Shown here: positions 7,954 to 28,643 of the stretch, piece by piece
Layout: each line of letters begins with the position of its first letter
Numbering within the stretch: position 1 is the first letter of the stretch
Virus record (IMG/VR): IMGVR_UViG_3300031539_000005
Coordinates: 1-64,000 of that record
Strand: one strand, 5' to 3'
From: a virus
Taxonomy: Duplodnaviria; Caudoviricetes
Length of the DNA: 64,000 bases
The notes under the pieces: generated by a model
Database searches by the model: none
Told to the model about the DNA's origin: nothing
Seen by the model: only the letters and a program-made list of their open reading frames with translations
Position numbers and translations under genes: made by a program

Positions 7954-9711
7954 ATTCCCGAAATCCTTGAACGTTGTGTTAAACAGGTAATGAAACAGGG
8001 CAAGAGTAAAAGCTCAGCATTCGCAATTTGTACTGAGAGTTTGAAGAAGAAAGGAAAGCTAACCGACGAAGAACTGGATGTTCTTTTGAATGATATCGCC
8101 GATGTTAATGAAGGGACTGTTGAGTTTAAAGAATTGATGACCTATATTGAGTGCGATGCTTTAGAGCTTTGGACTGCTCCTTCCAAGCGAAAAGATCTCT
8201 CCGAATCGCGTTTTTTTGATCCTAAAAACAAGAAATATATCTATAAGAATGTTGATGGGTCAATTAACCACGGTGGAGTAATGGCGGCTTGGAAAATGGC
8301 TAATGGGGCCAGAAGTGGGGAAAAAGCCGATCCTGGCATTATCAGTAAAATTAAACCTGTCAGAGATAATTGTCTCAAACAAAAGAAACAATCCGAAGTT
8401 TCTCACAAATTCACTTTTCCTATCTCCGAATCAATTCTCTCCGATATTGAACTTGCTGCAAACAAACCCCTTGAAGTTCAGATCTTAAAACCTGGAAGAT
8501 TTAAACATCCATGGTGGGGAGTTTTGCGCTTTGATGATGCTTTCTTCAGAAATATTATTAAGAATTTTGACACCGATATTCCTCAAGAGAAGATTGCTTT
8601 TGACTTTAGTCATAGGCCAGAACTTGGAGCGGCAGCTTGGGTTGACAAGCTTTTCACTAAGCCAGAAGGTTTATTTTCTCTCGTGGAACTAACGGATGAA
8701 GGGAAGAAAGCCATCAAAGGTGGACAGTTTAAGTATTTCTCTGCTGAATATGCGGATGATTTTACTGTAACTGAATTTGAGGACGAGATCGATGAGGAAG
8801 GACATGTAAGAGAAAAAGAGATCAAGTTTAATTATGGTCCTACCCTCATAGGAGGTGGACTTACCAACCGACCGTTTCTTAAGGGGATGAAGCCAGTTTC
8901 TCTTAGTGAAGATGGAACGGCTATTGAGATGGAAGAGATCAGTGACGATGAACTATTTAACCAAATGTCAGAGGAGGTGAAAGAGAAGATGAAAAAGACT
9001 TTAGATGAGTTGAAACTGGAACAAGGTAAACTCACTAAGCAACTCGAAGAGCTGACCGCCACCAAGAAAGAAGACGCCGAGACCAAAACAAAAATCGGAG
9101 GTCTTGAGGTGCAGTTAGAGGAAATCAAAGTCGAGATGAAAAAGCTTTCTGATACCAAGACCACTGGCGATGCTGATAAGGCAAAAAAAGAGCTTGCCGA
9201 TAAGGAAAAGGCTCTGGGCGAGGCCAATCAGAAGTTAGTGGAAAGGGATGCTGAGCTCAAGAGATTGAGTGAAGATATAAAATCCCTTACGGGATCGGTC
9301 AAAGGGCTGATGGATTCCAACAAGGAACTTCAGGAAGCTAGATTCAAAGCTCTAACTGAAAAGCGTCTTCAGGAATTTAAGATGTTGGGAGTATTTCCTT
9401 CGACTCTTAAGATCGTCGAACCAATTCTCTTATCTCCAGAAGCAAAGACTTTTACAGTCAAGCTTTCGGAGGGAGAAGGAGAAGCGAAAAAGGAAACGCT
9501 CAAGACCCTGGCGGATGTTCTCTTTGATGTCTTTACTTCTATCCCGGCCGATCATCGGTTCAGTGTAGAAGAATTGAGTGAGTCTGTTGTTGGCCCTTCC
9601 GGAGGAACGAAAGAACTTTCGGTGGAAGATGTGGAAAAATTTGCCAAGGACAATACTCTTTCCTATGACGATGCCTTGATTGAACTTTCAAGGCAGGGAA
9701 AAATCACGTAG
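7954..9711 (+). CDS. Prohead protease / scaffold protein (Mu gpI-like phage protease with C-terminal coiled-coil scaffold); probable ATT start at 7954
   Basis: DFSH...AAAWV...ELTDEGKKAIKGGQFKYFSAE...GGGLTNRPF protease motifs; long K/E coiled coil; lies directly upstream of the cement and capsid genes. Confidence 0.85.
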   Translation: MPEILERCVKQVMKQGKSKSSAFAICTESLKKKGKLTDEELDVLLNDIADVNEGTVEFKELMTYIECDALELWTAPSKRKDLSESRFFDPKNKKYIYKNVDGSINHGGVMAAWKMANGARSGEKADPGIISKIKPVRDNCLKQKKQSEVSHKFTFPISESILSDIELAANKPLEVQILKPGRFKHPWWGVLRFDDAFFRNIIKNFDTDIPQEKIAFDFSHRPELGAAAWVDKLFTKPEGLFSLVELTDEGKKAIKGGQFKYFSAEYADDFTVTEFEDEIDEEGHVREKEIKFNYGPTLIGGGLTNRPFLKGMKPVSLSEDGTAIEMEEISDDELFNQMSEEVKEKMKKTLDELKLEQGKLTKQLEELTATKKEDAETKTKIGGLEVQLEEIKVEMKKLSDTKTTGDADKAKKELADKEKALGEANQKLVERDAELKRLSEDIKSLTGSVKGLMDSNKELQEARFKALTEKRLQEFKMLGVFPSTLKIVEPILLSPEAKTFTVKLSEGEGEAKKETLKTLADVLFDVFTSIPADHRFSVEELSESVVGPSGGTKELSVEDVEKFAKDNTLSYDDALIELSRQGKIT

Positions 9712-16445: not shown

Positions 16446-16922
16446 GTGAGATGGGGCGTAGCTACGAGGTATCTCAAAGATCCTGCTACTTGGGATTGTG
16501 ATTATTGTTCTGAGCATGAAGCCATTAGAGAAGCTCGGAATTGTGATTGGGAAAAACCTGGAGAATGTAAAGTCTGTGGCCTTATTCCTTTTAAGGATAT
16601 TTCTAGGGATTCAAAAAATGGCCGTTTCTTATGTCCTTCTTGTGATCAACGGATAACTTTTGGTAAATCTGAATTTCTCCTTGGAAGAACGTACAGAGCT
16701 CCAGGTTGCCCCAAGTCACATATAACGCCTAGAGCAATTCTTTTGCTTCAACTTGTAGAGTGGTCAGATACTACAGGAAAATTGCCAACGGCTCAAACCC
16801 TATTTGATGAAAGTGCGCTTTTTTTTGAAATAAGAAGTTTTATAGTGTCCGAAAAAAATGTTGCTGAACTAGAAATGGAACCTAAAGAAAAAACTTCTAT
16901 TAAAAGAAAAGGAAGTAAATAA
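16446..16922 (+). CDS. Second tail assembly chaperone ORF (gpT-like), Cys-rich; may be reached by a -1 frameshift
   Basis: The -1 frame is open from 16353; CxxC motifs; GKLPTAQTLFDESA resembles the G.LP..GG..DQ pattern. Confidence 0.65.
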   Translation: MRWGVATRYLKDPATWDCDYCSEHEAIREARNCDWEKPGECKVCGLIPFKDISRDSKNGRFLCPSCDQRITFGKSEFLLGRTYRAPGCPKSHITPRAILLLQLVEWSDTTGKLPTAQTLFDESALFFEIRSFIVSEKNVAELEMEPKEKTSIKRKGSK

Positions 16923-19900
16923 TGGCAGAAACTTCTAGGGAGCTTAAGCTTATTCTTCGATTGCTTCGGGATAAAAAAAGCAATACTGAAATTAAGAAGC
17001 TTGAAGAACAGATTACGGAGATACATAAAAAGTTAGCCAAAACTCCTTCTTTTGGATCTAAGTTAAGAGGAGATGTTGACAAAACCTCTACATCTATTAA
17101 TAAGCTCAGGGGAGTTATAGATAAAACTGCCATTAGTCTTGGGGGATTAGGTCAAGCTGCTGGCAAAATAGACCTTCGCGGACTTGCTGAAAGAGCTGCC
17201 ACTAGCCTTGGAAAGCTCATAGAACATACTCGTCGTGCTAAAGGCGAAATGGGAAGGTGGGCAAAGGAGGCTCCGGAGGAGATTTCAAAAATATCGGCCG
17301 CTCTAGATCCAGCCACCAATGCTATGCTTGAAATGGCGAATGTAGCAACCAGAGTAGAGCGTCATTCAACTTCTCTCGCCGGACATGTTAATAATCTCAG
17401 AACAGAATTTTACAGTTTAAGAGCTCCTGTTGCGGAAGCAAGCGGTCTTTTGGATATTTTTGGCAAGAATATCCTTGAGGCTGAATCTCCAATTCCTCTC
17501 TTTGTTAAAGAACTTACCAGATTAGAAATAAAGTTGCGAGATGTTCAAGCTCTAGGGCAACTTAAGAGAATCTTTTCTTTTGAACAAGATATTCAAACTA
17601 TTAAAATTTTTCAACAAGAAGTTGAAAATCTGCGATTACGTTTAGCTCAACTTTCTCAGCAAGGGTTTTCTCCTAAGACTGTAGGAGTAACCCAAGACAT
17701 GATTGTAGCCTTTAAAAAAGCTGAGTCTGAAGTTAGAAAACTCGCGACTGCCTTTGAAACTCTTCCTGATCAGATTCAGCAGTTAAAAAAGCTAGAATTA
17801 GGCATTAATCAAATTAAATCTTCAACAGAATTTGCTTCAGAGAAACTCAAGGCTCTAGCTGTTCGCTTTCAGGAAGCCGGAACAGTAGGAGTTCCAGAAC
17901 TTGATAAACTTATTAACAAATATTTGCAACTCAGAACGGAGGTAACTTCTAGTTTAAAGAATATCGGAGTAGCTTATGCTGACCTAATCTATTATCCTAG
18001 CACCTTTGCCCAAGCTCACCAAAAAGCAACAGAACAGATTCAAGGCCAAACTTCTAAAACAGAAGCTACGATAAATCAGTTAAGGACAACGTATGACACT
18101 TCTATGAAGCAAATGATTCAGAATACTCTTGCTTTATCCCAGACATCAGTAGATACTTTCCATAAACAACAACAAGATTTAACTGCTCAAGTTGAACTTA
18201 CTGGTAAACTTCGTGGAAGTCTAGAGAGTCTATTGGGACAATATAGACAACTCAGAGCAGGACTTCAGTTATTTGGCAAAGAATGGAAGACGACCGCTAT
18301 GGCGGGAGAGCTGCAAGAAAGTGTTCTTAAGAAGATTATGGCTCTCCAAGGCCAACTTCCTGCTCAATATCAACGTTTATCATCTAGTATTCAAGCTTGG
18401 ATTACTCAACAGTTCAGAGCAGTTTCTGATACTGAATTACTGGATAAAACTGTTAAGCAATTAGAAATTGATCTCTCAATGCTTGCACAGAGAGAACAAG
18501 TCTTAATTTCTGCAAATGAATATCTTGCAAATTCAGAAACCATTCTGTCTAAAAGAGTTGATCTTGCAAGAGAATCTACGAAGCGCTATGCAGACACCAT
18601 TATTCTGCTTACTGAAATGCTCCAAAGAATGAAATCTGTTTCTGGAGCAAGTGAAGCAGAAATGCAAAGAATAAGAAAATCCTTAGAACAATTATCTTAT
18701 CAGGCAACTGGAGCAGGGGCTAATCTCCAGAATCTAAGTAATAATTTAGATCAAGTTAGAAGAAGAGGAGCGGATACAGCTAGAGCTCTAGAGCGCGTGA
18801 CTGCTCGTGGTTTTGCCAATATGATTGTGAGTCAAGCTGCATGGATGGCTGGATTTCAAGTCATTTTTGGAACTCTAGATAAATTTAAAAAGGCATTAGG
18901 CGCAACTGTTGAAACACAAGAAGCTGTTGTTCGCGCCATGAGAACCGCCAGGAGTGAAACAAAGTCTTACATTGATGTATATAGACTTTATGCTCAAGCT
19001 ATAACGGAAGCTAGGGCTGAAACCGGAGCTGCAATAGCTGATCTTGGAGAAATCCTATATCAATTAGGTTCTGCTGGTCTTAGTGCAGAAGAATCTCTCG
19101 CCGCACTTACTTCAACTCTTGCTAATATCATAGGCACTGAAGCAGAAGTGAGAGATATTACAAAACTCGTTGCTGGTCTTTACAATAATTTTAAAGATCA
19201 AATTGTTAAAGTCGACGGAAGACTTAGAGCTCTTTCTGCCACAACAAGACTTTATGCAGACACACTTATAGAAACTGCTAGTCTACAAGATAAATTTAGA
19301 TATATTAATGATCTCTTGGTTGCAGGGTTTAGGGACAACCAAGTAGAAATGATGGAATTGAGGGATGGCCTCAAATTCATGGCTCAGTCTGCTCGGGCTG
19401 CCAATCTTGCTCTTGACGAACAAGTTGGAATTCTAGCGTACCTGAATAACCACTTAATCAAAGCAGGTATGGCTGGACGAGCAATGCGTGTAATTCTCAG
19501 TAAATTGTCTACAGATGCTACTGGTTTTGCAGAAGCATTTAATATCAATATTGATTTATCTAAACCTCTTAATTTCTTTGAAATAATGGGGAAATTGAAT
19601 GAACGCTATAAAGGTCAGACTCTTGCCATAGAAGAACTTGGTAAGGTTTTCAAGAAGTTAGGACTAAGAGGTGCTGAAGCTTTTAACCTCTTAATGAAGA
19701 ATATAGATGAAGTTGAATCTACTATAGGTCAACTTCGTGATTCCGCAGATGGGGCAGCGGAAGAAATGCAAAAAATTAGATTGTCAGATTTAGCTTCTCA
19801 GGCGGCTATTGCTGCTGCCGAAGTTGAAACCCTTCTTAAGACCGCTCTTAATCCTTTAGCGCAAACTCTCGGAATTGTTGTTGGATTAGTAAACACTTTG

Positions 19901-22900
19901 TATAAAGCGTTAGCCTTTATTGATAAAAGTCTTGGAGGAGTTATTGGTTCAATTATAACTATGATTGGTCGGCTAGTGGCAGTCGGTCTTTTATTTGCTG
20001 TCTTCACGAATTTTGGAAGAATACTTAATTGGATTGTTGCTGTGTTTATTAATATTGGAGCGGCAATGGGACAATTTGGAGCTCTAGCAACCACAGCGAC
20101 ATCTGCGACGGCGAGACTAACTAGTTCTCTTTGGACGCTAAAGGGAGCGACCATTATGTATTCCCGGAGTGTCACCAGTGCTGCTCAGGGAATGGCAGTA
20201 GCAGGGACAGCGGCAGCTCCTATGCTTATTCAACTTAAAGGAATTAGTAAATGGGTCAATGTGGCAAAAGTGGCTTTCATGGGATTAAGTATGATCTTAA
20301 GAGGAGGATTAGTTTTTTTAGGAATTGAAGTCCTTATAAAATCAATTCAATATTTTGCTACTGCAACTGAAAGAGCGAAGAAAGCTGCTGAAGAACAAAA
20401 GAAAATTTATCAAGAACAGAGTGCTTATGTCAACAAACTTGAAACTCTCGTAGCTTGCCTTGGTACTTATAACAAAATTACTGAAGAAAATAGAGCTATC
20501 CTTTATGAACTTGCTTTGCAAACTGGAATTACAATAAAAGCTGATGAGAGTCATATTGTAGTAATTGAGAAGGTGGTGAATGCTACAAAAATTCTCATAA
20601 AAGCAAGACAGGCATTAGCAGATGAAATGGCAAGAGTTATGTTTGAGAAGGAAGGAGCAGTTATAGATAAACTTACTGACCAAGTAGAAAAATACGGAAG
20701 AACAGGAGTCAGTGTATGGGGGAAACTAGCTTTTCAGATTAGAGAAACTTATTGGCCTCTTGCAAAATTGTATGATTGGATTTTTAAATTAAGCAATAGT
20801 AAGAAAAAAGTGGTTGAACTTGCGAGCAGTCTTGCCGATGTTGAAAAAGCCGTCAGAGGTCATAACATTCAAGAAGAAAGACAGAAAAAACTTGGCATGG
20901 AAGATGCTTGGAAAAAACGAAAGGAAGCACTTGATAAACAGAGAGAAAGTATTCTTTTAGCCAGTAAAGCTCATTTAGAATACATTAGGACGCATCGGGA
21001 TGGAAAACCAGTTCTTGGAGAAACTGCTGAAGCGATTAAAAGACTTGATAAAGATCTTCGTGTTGTAACTTCGTCTACAGTAGATACAATTAAAGAATTT
21101 AAGAAATTGAATCAGGAAATTCTTAATTTCAGAGAAGCAGTTAGAATGTATGAAGGATATGAAAAATCATTATCCTTTGTTATTGATTCCAGTGCTCTTG
21201 TTAATTTTGCCGAAACTTTAGAAGAATTTAGAAGAAAAGCTTCTTTGGAATCTATGATAGATCAAACAAAAATGTTGATTACTGAATTTCAGGCTTTGAA
21301 TGAGGAAGGATTAAATCTTGAGGCATTTCAAAAAGTAGTTGCGGATGCAAATAAGCAATTTGGAACTTTACAAAAAGAAATAGATGGTGTGGTTAAGAAG
21401 GTTATCTCTCTGCGAGATGAGAATATTAAACTTGGAGAGTCTGTATTTACAATTAGAACTGAAGCTTTGCAAAGACAATTTGATCTACTTGCATCCAAAA
21501 TTGAATCTAATGTAGACGAATTTGAAAAACTAATGTCTGCTACAGATAAATACGATACTTCAGTCAGAGGGGTAAGGGATACAATAAGCCAGACTAAAAT
21601 GAAAGTTTCTGAATTAAGTGTTGAAGTGAATCGAGTTTCAAGAGGTACCGAAGAATGGAAAAAAGCAAGTTCAGATTTACGTGCTGAAGAAGAAATTTTA
21701 TTGGTCTATACCGAAAGATTGAACAGAGCAGAAGCTCAGAGAACCGCACAGGTTGGAAGTGGAATAAGAAATCTTGAAACAATGAGAAGCAGAACAGAAG
21801 AATTAGTTAGAGAAATAGAAGAATTGACTATTACAAAAATAAGGGCAGATGCTGAATTAAATAGAACCAATCGTGGAACAGAGGAATGGAGATCAGCATT
21901 AGCAAATGTTCGTCAAATTCAAGAAAGTATTTACATAAAGCAGGAACAATTAACTGAACATCAGAAAGAAGAAGTTCAAAATCAAGAAAGAGTAGCAGCT
22001 TTTGTAAGAGAAATGACGACTCTCTATGGAAACCAAATAGATTCACTCAAGGGACGAGATAGATTACTTAATCAAGCTGTAGCGTGGAATGAAGGTCTAG
22101 TGAGAAGCTTACGCGCTTCTGCTGGATACAATGCAGAGTCTCAAGAATCAATAAGAAAAGAAAGTGAATTGATGGAGAAAACAAAGGCCAAGCTTACGGA
22201 AAAAATAGGCATATTAGATCAAATTAAAAAATCTCAGCAAAGCCTAATAGACTTGGAAGAAAAAACTGGAAAGATTACAGAGCTAGAAGCTTCTAGAAGA
22301 AGAGCATTGGCAGAAGTAGAATATGGCAGAGAAGCAGGAAAAATTAAGAACATCTTGGATGCAGTAGGGGAGAAACAAATTGAAATTGCTCAACAGATAC
22401 AAAGAGCCAATGAGGAAATGATCTCTAACCTTGTTCAAAGTTTAGATCAATTAAAGGCTTCTATGCAAAGCATTATTGATTTCTTTAGCAGAACTGAATT
22501 GAAAGTAACCCTCAGCACCACTCAAATGGAATATTTCAAAAATTGGTATGAACAATTTTTCGGAAGAGACAGGATTCATCTTTTTAGATTTAAATATGTA
22601 GCTGTGAATGCTCCTCCTAAAGAAGAAGCAATGTATCGAGGAGGTGCGCTTGGGAGAGCTTCAGGAGGATTAATTCCTGCAAGAGTAACTGCTGGAGAAG
22701 GTTATGTTCCTCCGAGTAAAGCTATGGGAAATCTGAACCTCTTAAATTCTCTTAATGGAGGTAGGTCTGTTCCAGGATTACCTTTTGGTGTTGCTAAATT
22801 CGCTGGACGGGGCGGAGTAGATGCGATCCATACCTTATTGCCAAAGGGTTCTTATATAATTTCTAAAAAAGGAATGCAAGCATTTGAACAATCAATGCCT

Positions 22901-23095
22901 TTTGCTGAAGGCGGAGAAGTTAACGAAGACTTTATTAAAGAAGAGTCTTCTGAAAGAGAAGAAAAGATTGGCAGTTTTACAATAATTGTTCAAAAAGATG
23001 GGGTCACTAAGGAATTTCCGGTGCAGGGCAGAATTTCTGTCCTTAGAAAATTACAAGATGAACTTGAAGAAGAACGAATGACAAAGTTGCATTAA
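16922..23095 (+). CDS. Tail tape measure protein (TP901-type core)
   Basis: 2057 aa, helical; YQLGSAGLSAEESL...IKAGMAGRAMR core; hydrophobic central segment; synteny. Confidence 0.9.
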   Translation: MAETSRELKLILRLLRDKKSNTEIKKLEEQITEIHKKLAKTPSFGSKLRGDVDKTSTSINKLRGVIDKTAISLGGLGQAAGKIDLRGLAERAATSLGKLIEHTRRAKGEMGRWAKEAPEEISKISAALDPATNAMLEMANVATRVERHSTSLAGHVNNLRTEFYSLRAPVAEASGLLDIFGKNILEAESPIPLFVKELTRLEIKLRDVQALGQLKRIFSFEQDIQTIKIFQQEVENLRLRLAQLSQQGFSPKTVGVTQDMIVAFKKAESEVRKLATAFETLPDQIQQLKKLELGINQIKSSTEFASEKLKALAVRFQEAGTVGVPELDKLINKYLQLRTEVTSSLKNIGVAYADLIYYPSTFAQAHQKATEQIQGQTSKTEATINQLRTTYDTSMKQMIQNTLALSQTSVDTFHKQQQDLTAQVELTGKLRGSLESLLGQYRQLRAGLQLFGKEWKTTAMAGELQESVLKKIMALQGQLPAQYQRLSSSIQAWITQQFRAVSDTELLDKTVKQLEIDLSMLAQREQVLISANEYLANSETILSKRVDLARESTKRYADTIILLTEMLQRMKSVSGASEAEMQRIRKSLEQLSYQATGAGANLQNLSNNLDQVRRRGADTARALERVTARGFANMIVSQAAWMAGFQVIFGTLDKFKKALGATVETQEAVVRAMRTARSETKSYIDVYRLYAQAITEARAETGAAIADLGEILYQLGSAGLSAEESLAALTSTLANIIGTEAEVRDITKLVAGLYNNFKDQIVKVDGRLRALSATTRLYADTLIETASLQDKFRYINDLLVAGFRDNQVEMMELRDGLKFMAQSARAANLALDEQVGILAYLNNHLIKAGMAGRAMRVILSKLSTDATGFAEAFNINIDLSKPLNFFEIMGKLNERYKGQTLAIEELGKVFKKLGLRGAEAFNLLMKNIDEVESTIGQLRDSADGAAEEMQKIRLSDLASQAAIAAAEVETLLKTALNPLAQTLGIVVGLVNTLYKALAFIDKSLGGVIGSIITMIGRLVAVGLLFAVFTNFGRILNWIVAVFINIGAAMGQFGALATTATSATARLTSSLWTLKGATIMYSRSVTSAAQGMAVAGTAAAPMLIQLKGISKWVNVAKVAFMGLSMILRGGLVFLGIEVLIKSIQYFATATERAKKAAEEQKKIYQEQSAYVNKLETLVACLGTYNKITEENRAILYELALQTGITIKADESHIVVIEKVVNATKILIKARQALADEMARVMFEKEGAVIDKLTDQVEKYGRTGVSVWGKLAFQIRETYWPLAKLYDWIFKLSNSKKKVVELASSLADVEKAVRGHNIQEERQKKLGMEDAWKKRKEALDKQRESILLASKAHLEYIRTHRDGKPVLGETAEAIKRLDKDLRVVTSSTVDTIKEFKKLNQEILNFREAVRMYEGYEKSLSFVIDSSALVNFAETLEEFRRKASLESMIDQTKMLITEFQALNEEGLNLEAFQKVVADANKQFGTLQKEIDGVVKKVISLRDENIKLGESVFTIRTEALQRQFDLLASKIESNVDEFEKLMSATDKYDTSVRGVRDTISQTKMKVSELSVEVNRVSRGTEEWKKASSDLRAEEEILLVYTERLNRAEAQRTAQVGSGIRNLETMRSRTEELVREIEELTITKIRADAELNRTNRGTEEWRSALANVRQIQESIYIKQEQLTEHQKEEVQNQERVAAFVREMTTLYGNQIDSLKGRDRLLNQAVAWNEGLVRSLRASAGYNAESQESIRKESELMEKTKAKLTEKIGILDQIKKSQQSLIDLEEKTGKITELEASRRRALAEVEYGREAGKIKNILDAVGEKQIEIAQQIQRANEEMISNLVQSLDQLKASMQSIIDFFSRTELKVTLSTTQMEYFKNWYEQFFGRDRIHLFRFKYVAVNAPPKEEAMYRGGALGRASGGLIPARVTAGEGYVPPSKAMGNLNLLNSLNGGRSVPGLPFGVAKFAGRGGVDAIHTLLPKGSYIISKKGMQAFEQSMPFAEGGEVNEDFIKEESSEREEKIGSFTIIVQKDGVTKEFPVQGRISVLRKLQDELEEERMTKLH

Positions 23096-23097
23096 TC

Positions 23098-24264
23098 ATG
23101 TACTTTACCTTTTCAGAAGAATCAGTCTATGGTTTAGATTCAACTTCTCAAGATTATGTAGCTGATCTTGTGTCGGATGAAGTAATAGATAATATTAATT
23201 ATGAGAAGAATAAAGAATTTACTTCCGGTACAAATGAATCCAGAACAAAACGAATTAAATCAATTGATGGAAGAGTTGGTTTGGAACTTACTTACGGAAA
23301 TCTTGGGTGGAACATTCTATTTAAGACCTTAATGGGCCAAAAAATAAATCTTCCTGATCTCTCTCTTGCTCAGAGTAGTGAAAAATGGAATATCATTACT
23401 GGAATGTTAGCTGCTGACCTTAGTGTGTCTGGTACTTCTTTCATTATTACTGAATATAAGTCAGGAGAATTTGACAATGTAGTAGGCGTGATTATTAATA
23501 GCGAATATATTGTGATAAATGCCATTGCCGGTGGGGTAGTAACAAGCTCCACAAGGGGTCAGATCGATACCACAGCCGTTCCTCACAACCAAAATGCCCT
23601 TGTGTATGGGGTAGTAAATTCTGGAGGCCAAAGCATAGATATAATTTCGAGATATCGTAACGGATTTTGTTACCAATTACCAACAAGTCTGACCTGCATG
23701 ATTTATAGAGCTGGAGATTATTTTACCTTTACGGGGGTACAGTTCTCTGACTTTGTGCTAAATCTCCGACCGACAGAAGGAATCACTGCTAGTTTTAATA
23801 TAAATGGAAGAGATTCTAAAGTTGTTAATGTTAATGATCCATCGACTGCGACAGATGAGAACGTACTCACGGATACAGACCATGTTAATTGCTACAGCAT
23901 GAATGTCGGAATAGATATTGCCAAGTTCTATTTTGAAATTAGCAATACTCTTCAGCCAGGAAAAGGTAAATTTTTGGACAGCACTTTAGGAAAAATGTTT
24001 TTGAAGAGTTTTTCTACCTATGGTCAATTTTCGGCGGTATCCTCTGACATTTCTTATTATCAAGATTATATTGATGATGTCGGTAAGAATCTTAGTATAA
24101 CGATATGTAATGACCGAAAATTTACAAAAGCCTATGTTTTATCTTTTAATGATCTTAAATGGGGAACAATGCAGCACATTCTTAGAACAACAAGATTGAT
24201 TCATGATTCAATTCCTTTCTATTGTTATGGAAGTAATAGCTTTAATATTTTGATTCAGAATTAG
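23098..24264 (+). CDS. Tail-tube paralog (minor tail protein)
   Basis: FSEESVYG...LPTSLTCMIYRAGDYFTFTGVQFSDFVLNLRPTEGITASFNINGRD aligns by eye with tube LPKGMSVEVGRDVAAFLYAGMKVNTLELNATPGEFFTGTFGLMGKG. Confidence 0.7.
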   Translation: MYFTFSEESVYGLDSTSQDYVADLVSDEVIDNINYEKNKEFTSGTNESRTKRIKSIDGRVGLELTYGNLGWNILFKTLMGQKINLPDLSLAQSSEKWNIITGMLAADLSVSGTSFIITEYKSGEFDNVVGVIINSEYIVINAIAGGVVTSSTRGQIDTTAVPHNQNALVYGVVNSGGQSIDIISRYRNGFCYQLPTSLTCMIYRAGDYFTFTGVQFSDFVLNLRPTEGITASFNINGRDSKVVNVNDPSTATDENVLTDTDHVNCYSMNVGIDIAKFYFEISNTLQPGKGKFLDSTLGKMFLKSFSTYGQFSAVSSDISYYQDYIDDVGKNLSITICNDRKFTKAYVLSFNDLKWGTMQHILRTTRLIHDSIPFYCYGSNSFNILIQN

Positions 24265-24275
24265 GAGGTTTTGAA

Positions 24276-24698
24276 TTGACTTATCAATACGCACAAAATA
24301 TTGAAATTGCAGGACTCACTCTTGCTGTTAACCCTGATCAATACGAGCAGAGATTTAAGAAGTATGGAGAATTCAGGAGAACAGTTGGTGGAGGGATTGT
24401 GGATGTAGATGTTAATGGAAGTAAGTTAATTATAGAACTAAAAGGACTGACTCAAACACAAGTTGAAGACATTAAAAAACGCTGTGCTCTCAAGAAAGAA
24501 GTTTCCTTTGTTGACTTTGTTCCTATAGCCGAAAAGGACAGACAATCAAGAACAGTGTATGAATCTCTTTCTTCGGAAACAATTGATTCGGAAACGATTT
24601 ACTTATATATTCCAACTTATACTATTGTCATTTTTGACTTCATCCCAACTTATGCCGACAATATTCTCAGCTACGCTATTGTAGGAGAAGAGGTATAG
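24276..24698 (+). CDS. Putative distal tail protein
   Basis: TTG start with SD AGGAGGT; VNPDQY...RRTVGG motif; position after the tape measure. Confidence 0.55.
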   Translation: MTYQYAQNIEIAGLTLAVNPDQYEQRFKKYGEFRRTVGGGIVDVDVNGSKLIIELKGLTQTQVEDIKKRCALKKEVSFVDFVPIAEKDRQSRTVYESLSSETIDSETIYLYIPTYTIVIFDFIPTYADNILSYAIVGEEV

Positions 24699-24699
24699 T

Positions 24700-24822
24700 G
24701 TGAATTGTCCAAAATGCAAGAGACCTATGGATAAAACACCTGCAATCTGAGGAGATAAGAGAATAGGGTACAGGATTGTATTCAGATGCAGAAAGTGTGG
24801 AAAAAGAATTAAGACGAAATAG
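24700..24822 (+). CDS. 40-aa zinc-ribbon protein with an in-frame TGA at codon 17 (candidate selenoprotein): MNCPKCKRPMDKTPAI(U)GDKRIGYRIVFRCRKCGKRIKTK
   Basis: GTG 24700 with SD GAGGT 5 nt upstream; CPKC and CRKC in the same frame on either side of TGA 24748-24750; SECIS-like hairpin downstream; fills the intergenic gap. Confidence 0.6.
24740..24791 (+). promoter_or_regulatory. Candidate bacterial SECIS element
   Basis: Lower stem CTGCA(A)TCTGA / TCAGATGCAG; upper stem GTACA-GGAT-TGTAT; first loop G at +23 from the TGA. Confidence 0.5.
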
Positions 24823-24834
24823 AAAAGGAATAAA

Positions 24835-25023
24835 ATGTTATTAACCTGTTCGACTTGTGAAAAGACAAATGAGAAGAAAAAGTTAAAGTTTTACAAGATA
24901 GGTTTAAGATTAGTATGTGAGAACTGTTATCCTAATGAGGGAAGGCTTGCTAAAGAATTAAGCATAGAGATTATACAATTTGATGATCCGGTATGGGCAC
25001 AAATATCTAGAAAAGGAGACTAA
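24835..25023 (+). CDS. Small zinc-finger protein
   Basis: CSTC...CENC; SD AAGGA. Confidence 0.65.
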   Translation: MLLTCSTCEKTNEKKKLKFYKIGLRLVCENCYPNEGRLAKELSIEIIQFDDPVWAQISRKGD

Positions 25024-25025
25024 AA

Positions 25026-26009
25026 ATGGAGAACACAGACATTGTCTTGATGAAGTCAGTTACAGTGAATGATAATGCTGCGAATGGAGGTAGGATGTCA
25101 AATAATCAAGTAACCTCCAATGTGCTAAATAATATGTTTCCAAACGTTACTCAGTCCGAAAGAACGAATGGCACAACGAGATATCGCAAATTCTTCTTCA
25201 GAAATAAGAATTCATCTTTAGAAACCGCCACGAATTCTAGAATTTGGGTATCGCAGCGATCAACTGGCGAAGACTATTTTCGAATCAAAGCCGGAACAAA
25301 TACCGATGTTCAGAGCGACGCTACAGGTTATTCAAGTTGGCTCGGGACAGGTTATCTGAAATCTGTTTTGGCCGCTGATGCTACCACCATTGAAGCTATC
25401 TTTGATGCCAACAATGGAGTTTATAATGGCAGTCTCTTGAGAGTTACAGATAGTAGTGGTGGAGAAGAATTTCTTACTGTTAAATCTTCTGGAGGGGTTA
25501 GTTGGATAGGAAATACAGCGACAATCATCGTTACTACTTCGGCCAGAGCAACTTATCCGGCAAGTCAGAATTGTCTTGTTTCGGCAGTTATTGATTTGGG
25601 AAATTTGGTTGCTTCTTCTGATAGTTGGGATGAGACTTCTGTTTCTGGTACGTATGATGAATCGACTTATCCTGTCGTGGTTAATAATGTAGGAACAGTA
25701 GAAGACAGTTGGACTATAACCTTTACTAGCGCATCAGCATTCCTTTGTTCTGGATCGAGTATCGGTTCGGTTGGCGTTGGGAGCATAAGCGCAGACTTCA
25801 ATCCAGTTAATCCGAATGTCGGAACTGGAGATTATTACTTTCAAGTTCGTCTTGCTGGATGGGGAGGAACCTGGGCCATTGGAGATACTGTAACTTTTGA
25901 TACTCATCATGGTGCTGCTGGAGCATGGGTGAAAGAAGTAGTTCCTGCCGGAATTGCTTCAAAGACTAATAATCAACTTAAGATTAAGCTTTATACTGAA
26001 GGAGCATAA
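25026..26009 (+). CDS. Tail/baseplate structural protein
   Basis: NGGRMS...NNMFPNVTQSERTNGTTRYRKFF N-terminus recalled from phage tail proteins; beta-rich. Confidence 0.65.
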   Translation: MENTDIVLMKSVTVNDNAANGGRMSNNQVTSNVLNNMFPNVTQSERTNGTTRYRKFFFRNKNSSLETATNSRIWVSQRSTGEDYFRIKAGTNTDVQSDATGYSSWLGTGYLKSVLAADATTIEAIFDANNGVYNGSLLRVTDSSGGEEFLTVKSSGGVSWIGNTATIIVTTSARATYPASQNCLVSAVIDLGNLVASSDSWDETSVSGTYDESTYPVVVNNVGTVEDSWTITFTSASAFLCSGSSIGSVGVGSISADFNPVNPNVGTGDYYFQVRLAGWGGTWAIGDTVTFDTHHGAAGAWVKEVVPAGIASKTNNQLKIKLYTEGA

Positions 26010-26667: not shown

Positions 26668-27081
26668 ATGGAGAAAGTTATGTATAATCAAATTTACAAA
26701 GTAATTTTTGAGGATGATACAGAATTCATCGGAGGAAGCTTAGATGCCCCCAAATGGAGTAAATGTCCTGATAATACCATCAAGGCATTAGAGATTAATC
26801 TTCCCTATGGAGATAAAATTGTCCTTTCGGAATACGAACAGTTTAACTTTTTCATAGGAGCAATTAAATCTCTTAATGCTGGAAGATTGGTAATTAGTCA
26901 TCTATTTGCTCTAGGGTGCAAGAATGACTTAGTCACTTCCTATCGAATCACACTTACTTCCAGAAATGCTTCTAATAAATATCAAGTTGGAGATATGACA
27001 GTAAGGCAATTTGCTTTTGGAAAAGAGGGTATAGGTAAGACATCCACGACTGGTTGGAGAAAAGGAACAAAGGTTGATTAA
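26668..27081 (+). CDS. Hypothetical protein
   Basis: Tightly packed ORF; YKVIFEDDTEFIGG. Confidence 0.6.
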   Translation: MEKVMYNQIYKVIFEDDTEFIGGSLDAPKWSKCPDNTIKALEINLPYGDKIVLSEYEQFNFFIGAIKSLNAGRLVISHLFALGCKNDLVTSYRITLTSRNASNKYQVGDMTVRQFAFGKEGIGKTSTTGWRKGTKVD

Positions 27082-28643
27082 TGGCAAAGTTTACTCCAGA
27101 TCATGGATTATATCTAGAGCCAGATACTAGTCCGTATACGAGTAAAGCACTGAGTGTCGATGACGATCTCATTGATGAAAATTTATATACAGCAGCTACT
27201 TCAAATTTCTGTGAAACAAGTTTTAGTTATGGTCTAGACTTAGGAAGCGCTCAGACCGTTGGGACTATTCGGGTTTGTTGGCAGACTTATGGGGATGTAA
27301 CTCCTGTGAGCTGGTCCAGTAGCGGGACAGATAGTGTCAAAGTTTTTAAGTCATCTGATAATACTACTTGGGTAGCGGTAGAACAATTTGATGGTCCCGC
27401 TTTTATTCATACAGGATATAAAGAACTTGCTTTTGATTGTGTTCTAACTACTCCTGCCTCTGCTAGATATTGGAAAGTAGTTGCTTTAGAAATATTGAGA
27501 ATTGAACCTGGGACAGGAGTTCTGTATGCTGGTGAAGTAGAAGCTTATCCTGAAGAAGCCAGTTCTTCTTCCTCAAGTTCATCTAGAAGTTCTTCTAGTT
27601 CGTCATCTAGAAGTTCTTCCAGTTCATCTTCGTCATCCAGGAGTTCTTCCAGTTCATCTAGAAGCTCATCTTCTTCTAGTTCATCTAGGAGCAGTTCCTC
27701 CTCTTCAAGTTCTTCAAGAAGTTCTTCATCTTCATCTTCTAGAAGTTCTTCGAGTTCATCTTCCAGAAGTAGCTCTTCTTCATCAAGTTCATCTAGAAGT
27801 TCTTCAAGTTCATCTTCTTCAAGTTCATCTAGAAGTAGTTCAAGTTCTTCATCTAGAAGTTCTTCAAGTTCATCTTCGTCAAGAAGTAGTTCCAGTTCTT
27901 CTAGCCATTCATCTAAAAGCAGTTCAAGCAGTTCAAGTTCATCTTCTTCAAGTTCTTCTAGAAGTAGTTCAAGTTCTTCTAGCCGTTCATCTAAAAGCAG
28001 TTCAAGCAGTTCAAGCAGTTCAAGCAGTTCTTCATCCAGAAGTAGTTCTAGCTCATCTAGTTCATCTTCATTATCTAAGAGTTCTTCTAGCTCATCTTCT
28101 AGTTCTAAAAGTTCAAGTAGCTCAAGTTCATCTTCTTCAAGTTCTTCTAGAAGCTCTTCTAGTTCTTCTTCTAGCAGTTCTTCTAGTTCATCATCATCTC
28201 AATCTAGTTCATCTTCATCCAGTAGTGCTCCTGCTCACAGGGCAGATTTCTATCTAGATACAAAAGTTTATAAAGTTCACAGAGCGGATATTCGTTTTGA
28301 TTCTGCAATAAAACTTGGAACGAGACATTTACTTAAACTTGATTGTGAAATAGCTGCTACGAGTAGAGTATGGGGATATGTAAGAGATTGGAGGGGGCAC
28401 ATTGTTAGAAAAGAATGTAAGATAATTATTTCTTCTTCTGATGGAGCAACTATTTATGGAGCTACGATATCATCTTGGACAACTGGATATTATAATGCTC
28501 AAGTTAATTTACCAAAGGGATCACAAGTTCTGGTAACTGTTTTCTATACTGGAACTTTTAGGAATCAAACAAACATGGCAGGATCTGATATTGTTACTAC
28601 AGCAAGTTCTTCATCAAGTAGTAGTTCACTTTCAGCGAGCTAA
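27081..28643 (+). CDS. Serine-rich tail/virion protein: discoidin (F5/8 type C)-like N-domain, ~220-aa poly-Ser stalk, C-terminal beta-sandwich
   Basis: LDLGSAQTVGTI...SSDNTTW...SARYWKV...EVEAY discoidin-like motifs; Ser tract. Confidence 0.75.
   Translation: MAKFTPDHGLYLEPDTSPYTSKALSVDDDLIDENLYTAATSNFCETSFSYGLDLGSAQTVGTIRVCWQTYGDVTPVSWSSSGTDSVKVFKSSDNTTWVAVEQFDGPAFIHTGYKELAFDCVLTTPASARYWKVVALEILRIEPGTGVLYAGEVEAYPEEASSSSSSSSRSSSSSSSRSSSSSSSSSRSSSSSSRSSSSSSSSRSSSSSSSSSRSSSSSSSRSSSSSSSRSSSSSSSSSRSSSSSSSSSSSRSSSSSSSRSSSSSSSSRSSSSSSSHSSKSSSSSSSSSSSSSSRSSSSSSSRSSKSSSSSSSSSSSSSSRSSSSSSSSSSLSKSSSSSSSSSKSSSSSSSSSSSSSRSSSSSSSSSSSSSSSSQSSSSSSSSAPAHRADFYLDTKVYKVHRADIRFDSAIKLGTRHLLKLDCEIAATSRVWGYVRDWRGHIVRKECKIIISSSDGATIYGATISSWTTGYYNAQVNLPKGSQVLVTVFYTGTFRNQTNMAGSDIVTTASSSSSSSSLSAS
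27561..28226 (+). repeat. Poly-Ser coding tract (~222 aa)
   Basis: Ser runs punctuated by R/K; mixed synonymous codons. Confidence 0.95.

Follow-up and report, generated by a model that had tools for sequence, protein, structure and literature searches.

In bacterial genes decoded through SelB, a hairpin inside the open reading frame (ORF), the selenocysteine insertion sequence (SECIS), follows the UGA that is read as selenocysteine (Sec); in Escherichia coli fdhF, SelB contacts the G and U of the hairpin loop together with a bulged U. UGA is also read as an amino acid in the RNA phage Q-beta, where the A1 protein is a UGA readthrough product into which Trp is inserted, while the shorter product serves as the functional coat protein. 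Here, a candidate for Sec insertion in a DNA phage is described: a mini-gene of 40 codons, predicted to encode a zinc-ribbon protein and carrying an in-frame TGA at codon 17, which lies among the tail genes of the virus record IMGVR_UViG_3300031539_000005 (Duplodnaviria; Caudoviricetes; IMG/VR). The window, as the term is used below, is the whole stretch of DNA that was analysed, namely the first 64 kb of this 122,493-bp uncultured virus record, which is estimated to be 89% complete.

The only virus selenoproteins named in the passages of a 2021 recoding review that are drawn on here are the glutathione peroxidases of molluscum contagiosum and fowlpox, and the fowlpox selenoprotein is described there as having its SECIS within the coding region (PMC8310308). 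A full-text literature search of main texts surfaced no paper on a phage-encoded selenoprotein, and the terms ‘phage’, ‘virus’ and ‘viral’ gave no match in the term-searched text of a 2026 review of the prokaryotic selenoproteome (PMC13188914). Among bacteria, the family NF041197, ‘dual CXXC motif small (seleno)protein’ (CxxC_Se_CxxC), is given in Table 1 of that review as OS_HP3 from Olavius symbionts, with the motif ‘RxU’ (PMC13188914); OS_HP3 was accepted as a new selenoprotein family with 2 TGA-bearing members and a Cys homologue count of 0 (PMC1976440 Table 2).

The mini-gene and its in-frame TGA

The mini-gene sits between two tail genes of 140 and 327 aa, which are separated by a 327-nt stretch that holds no called gene and has two mini-ORFs inside it. 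In the initial annotation, made from the letters alone, an uncalled frame was described here with a GTG start behind GAGGT, the two CxxC halves of a zinc ribbon flanking a TGA, and a TAG end; all of this proved correct.

24700..24822, + strand: mini zinc-ribbon ORF of 40 codons plus TAG (24820-24822), with its GTG start at 24700 and TGA as codon 17
24690..24694, + strand: Shine-Dalgarno-like GAGGT, 5 nt before GTG 24700 and within the conserved C-terminal codons of the upstream gene
24748..24750, + strand: in-frame TGA, codon 17, the candidate recoded codon, which is also codon 17 in the related loci L010 and L023

The first knuckle is CPKC (codons 3-6) and the second CRKC (codons 30-33, followed by Gly 34), with the TGA between them; past the TGA the +1 and -1 frames are both closed and the ORF frame alone is open. 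When CxxC-x(8-30)-CxxC was sought in six frames of the 122 kb, 6 uninterrupted motifs and 4 with one stop were found. Since interrupted and intact two-knuckle motifs are both rare genome-wide, the mini-ORF is not a chance pattern, and noise does not explain how an otherwise empty gap comes to contain a frame that has two knuckles, a start and a ribosome-binding site.

The possibility of a reading error was addressed with independent assemblies. The stretch is present in six DNA runs labelled soil metagenome, some of which may be the source sample, and in the three that were compared (Logan contigs at depths of 8.9, 75.6 and 6.8) there were zero differing letters over 24000-26000. This comparison is blind to rare variants; as independently assembled contigs are identical, an error of reading or of assembly is not the source of the TGA. 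In one soil metatranscriptome run, contigs match the flanking tail genes exactly at 24000-24116 and 25078-25520 and leave the mini-gene uncovered; phage RNA, or carried-over DNA, is present in that library.

Elsewhere in this phage TGA is an ordinary stop, as had been noted initially: it ends 32 of 128 long + strand open frames in the phage genome and terminates 30 + strand ORFs of at least 100 aa. ARAGORN found zero tRNA genes over the 122 kb, hence no suppressor tRNA. Amongst the 33 + strand gaps that were inspected, a TGA-interrupted ORF explains only the mini-gene gap, and with this sole case the genome does not show the pattern of genome-wide stop recoding (code 4 or 25, or a suppressor tRNA).

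A 40-residue peptide is too short for sequence searches, so the flanking genes were used as anchors, and this brought to light two homologous mini-genes.

24276..24698, + strand: 140-aa tail-module gene, with its stop TAG at 24696-24698, one base before the mini-gene start
25026..26009, + strand: 327-aa tail-module gene, the synteny anchor, matching PHROG families of unknown function
L010, 2111-2269: homologous mini-ORF, with TGA codon 17 at 2159-2161
L023, 1015-1137: homologous mini-ORF, with TGA codon 17 at 1063-1065

Relatives of the 327-aa protein were found on 4 viral and 26 metagenome contigs (36-75% identity in the best aligned segment), at least one pair of which is the same contig from two collections. 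Both flanking genes are present in 24 related loci. In 22 of these they stand 7-86 nt apart, and the two long gaps, of 137 nt (L023) and 392 nt (L010), each contain a homologous mini zinc-ribbon ORF. The gene is therefore sporadic (3 of 25 genomes, the window's included) and, because 22 of the 24 related loci are without it, dispensable for the tail as such. All three copies were left uncalled by gene prediction. In every one of them codon 17 is TGA, and the mini-gene begins next to or across the stop of the gene before it. The stop concerned in L010 is itself a TGA, which shares an ATGA with the mini-gene start and lies 48 nt before the in-frame TGA; as the first of these ends a gene and the second apparently does not, the recoding is local. 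The check on codon 17 proposed in the initial annotation, run through synteny, thus gave TGA in both homologues and no Trp, Arg or Gly; the Cys codon (TGY) that had been envisaged there was not found in either. No Cys-17 homologue was found by sequence search, which for 40 residues could detect no homologue of any kind.

Direct searches added no copy. A word-indexed protein search with the peptide or the three-sequence alignment as query returned no usable homologue; phmmer with the peptide against 1.84 billion representative proteins gave 0 matches at E <=0.001; and tblastn with each of the three peptides against GenBank phages gave chance CPKC matches only. Viral-contig scans with three degenerate patterns and the alignment yielded no further mini-gene copy, and none of the 23 matches of one degenerate-pattern scan continues as a zinc ribbon when translated. 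A genome-contig scan with the alignment produced 3 matches, all generic ‘MNCPKCG’ N-termini of larger proteins, and a hidden Markov model run over six-frame translations of the analysed loci recovered the three known copies and no others. The synteny search returned the same 4 relatives from viral contigs both times and none from genome contigs.

The three phages have diverged widely: identity at four-fold sites in the flanking genes is 0.29-0.48, near saturation, and the mini-genes are pairwise 47-59% identical in DNA and 31-38% in protein. Yet in all three the start is retained, precisely 16 codons lead up to the TGA, which is itself kept, and behind it the frame stays open for another 23, 23 and 35 codons. 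M1, C6, codon 17, R21, Y24 and C30 are invariant; K38 is nearly so, being offset in L023 by the gapless codon line-up, and the window and L023 share an Arg before C30. The conserved residues past the TGA use synonymous codons (AGA/AGG, TAC/TAT, AGA/CGA, TGC/TGT, AAG/AAA) and many replacements in the mini-gene are conservative (D/E, R/K, I/V, F/Y), whilst the other knuckle cysteines vary: L010 has C-R-C for the first CxxC and L023 has CGT for the last TGT. Residues kept while neutral sites are near saturation point to selection and not to recent shared ancestry, and their retention in synonymous codons past the TGA means that the part after it appears to be translated. That UGA-17 is decoded is the simplest reading of the coding pattern downstream. 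Three other routes past the UGA were considered and set aside. For a +1 or -1 frameshift, both other frames close within 3-7 codons; for re-initiation, there is no in-frame ATG, GTG or TTG common to all three; and for a bypass of the T4 gene-60 type, protein-level conservation extends over the residues that separate the UGA from the second knuckle.

Phylogeny of the 327-aa protein places L010 with L023 in a single clade (support 100/99); the window branches outside it at an unresolved position, its nearest neighbour being L006, a relative without the mini-gene; a single origin of the mini-gene is possible.

At the level of the protein, two CxxC knuckles some 20-25 residues apart are found in the window copy (C3, C6, C30, C33), with deviations in L010 (CxC in the first) and L023 (C-x-H in the second). 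AlphaFold 2, run on a three-row alignment with Cys placed at codon 17, predicted a small zinc-ribbon-like fold (the best model had a predicted local distance difference test score of 86.6, the other four 61-70). Foldseek gave a best E of 0.31, to Rpb9/C11/TFIIS-type ribbons and ZifS 8yoz, and nothing at or below 0.001. The best scores against Pfam zinc-ribbon profiles (DZR, Zn_ribbon_6 and related) were 16-17 bits against cut-offs of 25-27, and PHROGs and NCBIfam returned sub-threshold generic zinc-ribbon matches only. The mini-protein thus looks zinc-ribbon-like in its predicted fold, yet is a member of no named family.

The hairpin downstream of the UGA

Positions are numbered here with the U of UGA as +1, which puts the loop of Escherichia coli fdhF at +22 to +25. 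When folded, the fdhF element (NC_000913.3) consists of GGU, a bulged U, a 3-bp stem, the loop GGUC at +22 to +25, and ACC, and it starts at +15. The corresponding elements of the three phages are as follows.

24766..24783, + strand (window): candidate SECIS hairpin beginning 15 nt past the TGA, with a stem of 7 bp (24766-24772 with 24777-24783) and the loop GGAU at 24773-24776, or +26 to +29
L010: stem of 5 bp followed by a bulged U and another 3 bp (alternatively, an unbroken 6 bp), with the loop GGUC at +23 to +26
L023: stem of 6 bp, with the loop AGGUUA at +23 to +28

The upper hairpin named in the initial annotation is real, in that it forms in the minimum-energy fold, where it extends to 7 bp. 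The match of its first loop G to the +23 of fdhF does not hold: that G is at +26, the earlier count having been made from the A of UGA. A lower stem enclosing the TGA had also been proposed (24740-24750 with 24782-24791). It is present in the window's minimum-energy fold, which with this stem reaches -12.5 kcal/mol (z -3.4, 0 of 200 shuffles as good), but it is specific to the window, with no counterpart in the folds of L010 and L023.

The upper hairpin is shared by all three phages. It lies at the matching place in the minimum-energy fold downstream of the UGA in each, the 3-nt shift of the loop in the window corresponding to the window's one extra codon, and RNAalifold predicted the same hairpin on the three-sequence alignment. 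The homologue check suggested at the outset therefore came out favourably as regards a G-rich-loop hairpin at the matching place in both, but not as regards covariation, which is not significant.

The published constraints of the bacterial SECIS (bSECIS) model were applied to the three sequences. As given in a figure legend of the 2026 review, the model has a loop of 3-9 nt and an upper stem of 4-16 bp, a G in the first two loop positions that is mostly followed by G or U, a distance of 16-37 nt from UGA to apical loop, and a minimum free energy of -7.5 kcal/mol or lower (PMC13188914, Fig. 2 legend). By that legend all three hairpins are of suitable size (loops of 4, 4 and 6 nt; stems of 7, 6 and 6 bp), have the loop G (GGAU, GGUC, AGGUUA) and are suitably spaced (22, 19 and 19 nt). 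They also fit the 6-8 bp stem and conserved G about 20 nt downstream that are given in the part of another account used here (PMC4605307).

A joint control was drawn from the three flanking genes of these phages, at 498 codon positions aligned between them and with loops of up to 8 nt; neighbouring positions in it are not independent. Single sequences passed at 83, 102 and 104 of the 498 positions, and a hairpin was present in all three phages at 8 of 498 (at least 5 bp) and 0 of 498 (at least 6 bp). It is this joint presence in three phages that is the unusual feature of the hairpin. A role as an intrinsic terminator was rejected, there being no U-run after the hairpin.

How UGA-17 may be read

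Taken together, the comparison of sequences confirms a small gene family, with three copies known, in which a mid-gene UGA is kept under selection together with a co-located SECIS-like hairpin, and the mini-ORF is taken to be a real accessory late gene for a zinc-ribbon protein of about 40 residues. Whether the UGA at codon 17 is decoded by bacterial-type Sec insertion through the SelB of the host is judged to be evenly balanced, which makes this the likeliest of the mechanisms considered. The fuller proposal is put forward a little more tentatively: a phage selenoprotein family, consisting of a 40-residue zinc ribbon produced as a late gene product, in which Sec-17 would be inserted through a minimal, fdhF-like SECIS. 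Ribosomes are coupled in from the upstream tail gene, as the sequences show by a start that abuts or overlaps its stop in all three phages, and would arrive at UGA-17; there the hairpin 13-15 nt downstream, with its loop G-G-(U/A), would act as an in-ORF SECIS and recruit host SelB and Sec-tRNA(Sec). If SelB or selenium were lacking, termination by release factor 2 (RF2) would be expected after 16 residues. As Sec-17 is invariant along with Cys-6 and Cys-30 whereas the other cysteines vary, it may belong to a metal or redox site; that these three residues form a selenium-containing site of this kind is speculative. The initial suggestion of a recoded UGA with Sec has so far been upheld in that the TGA and hairpin recur in two syntenic homologues and the TGA is not a read error, but not in that any Cys homologue exists to match. 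Its further idea, of a selenium or host-state sensor controlling the downstream tail genes, is unsupported, and most relatives are without the mini-gene.

Several observations weigh against Sec insertion. Neither selA, selB, selD nor tRNA-Sec was found in the phage genome, so the phage would depend on its host, which the matches of its other genes do not identify. Distant matches of the 327-aa protein, annotated as tail fibre or tail protein, all come from Proteobacteria phages, at only 25-33% identity; the GT9 gene clusters with viral proteins; and the head maturation protease-like protein (7990-9711) has one weak cyanophage match. No Rfam family, SECIS included, matched at the site. In the window the loop reads GGAU and not GGU, and the UGA lies outside any CxxC or UxxC motif. 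The UGA with 40 nt folds at -5.4 (window), -6.4 and -5.5 kcal/mol, which misses the energy limit given in the bSECIS legend; the sequences attain it solely when 50-60 nt are folded, by way of extra helices that are unrelated (L023 -7.5 and -8.2; L010 -7.9). Fold z-scores of the three stretches starting at the TGA are -1.8, +0.4 and -2.1. In a single-hairpin control (G-led loop at +18 to +30, loops of up to 9 nt), a hairpin followed 638 (at least 5 bp), 305 (at least 6) and 126 (at least 7) of 2556 + strand TGA trinucleotides; after 30 true TGA stops the counts were 6, 3 and 1. Taken alone, the window hairpin is not unusual. With three sequences covariation is not significant, 85.7% of cells being paired, 2 pairs changing on both sides and 103 of 500 shuffles doing equally well, and part of the stem pairing stems from conserved Tyr and Ile/Val codons. 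Against this last point, however, two variable codons hold on to their third base (a G preceding Tyr and a T preceding Ile/Val) even as the encoded residue differs. L023 is without the last knuckle Cys (CGT against TGT), which may mean decay of that copy. Lastly, beyond the three phages neither a Cys-17 homologue nor any other homologue was found.

Much of this would be accommodated if UGA-17 were instead subject to programmed leaky readthrough, a possibility that is nonetheless considered rather unlikely. A near-cognate tRNA (Trp) would read the codon, giving mostly a 16-residue peptide and few full ribbons, so that the UGA acts as a throttle on a protein of which little is needed, and the hairpin arises incidentally from conserved codons. 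A real and conserved TGA, a translated downstream part and local recoding fit it equally well; it asks for nothing special in the host's machinery, in keeping with the origin of the three phages in different samples, and it sits well with hairpins below the bSECIS energy strength and with covariation that is not significant. The base that follows the UGA is A in L010 and L023, and A after UGA is a leaky context, but in the window it is G. Leaky readthrough gives no reason to expect a hairpin at one matching place in three of three phages, for which the joint control gave 8 of 498 and 0 of 498, nor the fdhF-like loop and bulge of L010, and we know of no hairpin-stimulated readthrough in bacteria, which also counts against it. 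A weak ribosome-binding site would, in addition, be a simpler way to lower expression.

That the UGA is a true stop is distinctly improbable. The gene would then give a 16-residue CxxC peptide or nothing, as the decaying remnant of a mobile insert, and the sequence past the UGA would be kept for some other reason, e.g. as an RNA element or as spacing for the next gene. The sporadic occurrence of the gene (3 of 25 genomes) agrees with this, as do the other mobile inserts hosted by the module (GIY-YIG-like ORFs in L005 and L020), the missing fourth Cys of L023, the CxC of L010 in place of the first CxxC, and the absence of homologues and of any Pfam, PHROG or NCBIfam family at threshold. It accounts poorly for a start, a 16-codon part, a TGA, 23-35 open codons and synonymously changed residues that are all kept despite near-saturated neutral sites, since a dead remnant is not expected to remain alignable. 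An artefact of sequencing or assembly, or an altered code with TGA as sense throughout the phage or host, can be dismissed as highly implausible given three identical assemblies (one at depth 75.6), the same TGA in two other phages, its role as the stop of 32 of 128 long frames and of the gene just upstream in L010, and a genome with no tRNA genes.

The tail module and the described systems

The 122-kb phage genome has 37% G+C, with nearly all genes on the + strand. A protein at 7990-9711, first guessed to be a terminase, matches head maturation protease in PHROGs. The 2057-aa ORF at 16922-23095, in the tail module, is read as a probable tape-measure protein from size and position alone. In the same module, a 388-aa minor-tail or tube-like protein precedes the 140-aa gene, which has homologues in 24 related loci and a weak, sub-threshold match to Pfam Phage_TAC_5; in L002 (1870-3363) these two genes are fused into one 497-aa ORF. 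For the 327-aa gene, the protein search listed 196 homologues (protein clusters). Further along the window, at 27081-28643, is a 520-aa protein with a very long Ser run broken by Arg/Lys (roughly residues 150-420) between globular N-terminal and C-terminal parts, for which a PHROGs scan gave no match.

Directly after the mini-gene lies another small Cys-rich gene.

24835..25023, + strand: second mini zinc-ribbon gene of 62 aa, with an intact CxxC...CxxC

Its similarity to the first mini-gene is weak (E 0.073); it had zero relatives in a viral-contig scan and is absent from all related loci. In L010 the mini-gene is followed by a different Cys-rich ORF of 57 aa (about 2273-2446), and the junction of these tail genes seems to gather small Cys-rich genes. 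More small intact CxxC-type ORFs occur in + strand gaps outside the window (G000 112539-112745 and 80751-80894); the phage has many mini zinc-binding genes, and an in-frame TGA is found in only one of them. In two relatives, L005 (1562-2479) and L020 (about 200-940), this tail module has taken up GIY-YIG-like homing-endonuclease ORFs. The endonuclease ORF of L020 is preceded by a duplicate of the initial ~35 codons of the 327-aa gene and followed by that gene in full, an arrangement that looks like a homing or intron footprint.

If Sec insertion were borne out, with its dependence on SelB and selenium, it would amount to a new kind of phage–host dependence in which the phage's yield of this protein is tied to the selenium status of the host, and the mini-proteins would be a new small selenoprotein family. 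Because all three copies are uncalled, it would also mean that genes of this sort are systematically overlooked by gene callers when viral metagenomes are annotated. Even with Trp at residue 17, a UGA kept mid-gene across saturated divergence would be a rarity, as an instance of programmed readthrough in a DNA phage.

The longer product of Q-beta resembles that of the mini-gene in that a phage protein needs UGA to be read as an amino acid by some ribosomes; in contrast, the short form of the mini-gene product would be half a zinc ribbon, and Q-beta is without a SECIS-like hairpin. The poxvirus selenoproteins are more remote, being captured host enzymes of eukaryotic viruses that use a eukaryotic SECIS and are not zinc ribbons. 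Small zinc ribbons are known among predicted prokaryotic selenoproteins in the FmdB family (TIGR02605, UxxU), although there Sec replaces knuckle cysteines, whereas in the mini-protein it would stand between the knuckles; the window peptide scores 11.1 bits against this profile (cut-off 31.3). NF041197 was the best NCBIfam match, at 15.8 bits against a cut-off of 40, through the second knuckle only and for 1 of 3 members; the L010 and L023 peptides gave no match to it at E <=1, and no members above cut-off were found in 300 Clostridia genomes. Like the mini-protein, NF041197 is very small, with two CxxC motifs and one Sec in a non-CxxC motif; unlike it, this is a bacterial family, and the residues before U in the three mini-proteins are A-I, L-R and P-R and not RxU. 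As far as the tables cited above describe it, NF041197/OS_HP3 provides a precedent both for the architecture and for the standard of evidence.

With bacterial SelB/SECIS genes the mini-genes share a small hairpin within the ORF past the UGA, a G among the first loop positions and, in the three phages, a distance from UGA to loop of 19-22 nt. They differ in being phage-encoded, within a late tail module, and in having AU-rich hairpins of -5.4 to -6.4 kcal/mol; fdhF folds at -14.9 kcal/mol, and its extended lower helix is lacking from all three phage hairpins. The likeness is closest in L010, which has GGU, a bulged U, a 5-bp stem, the loop GGUC at +23 to +26, and ACC, starting at +14. So near is this hairpin to that of fdhF that the proposed Sec insertion is directly testable in E. 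coli.

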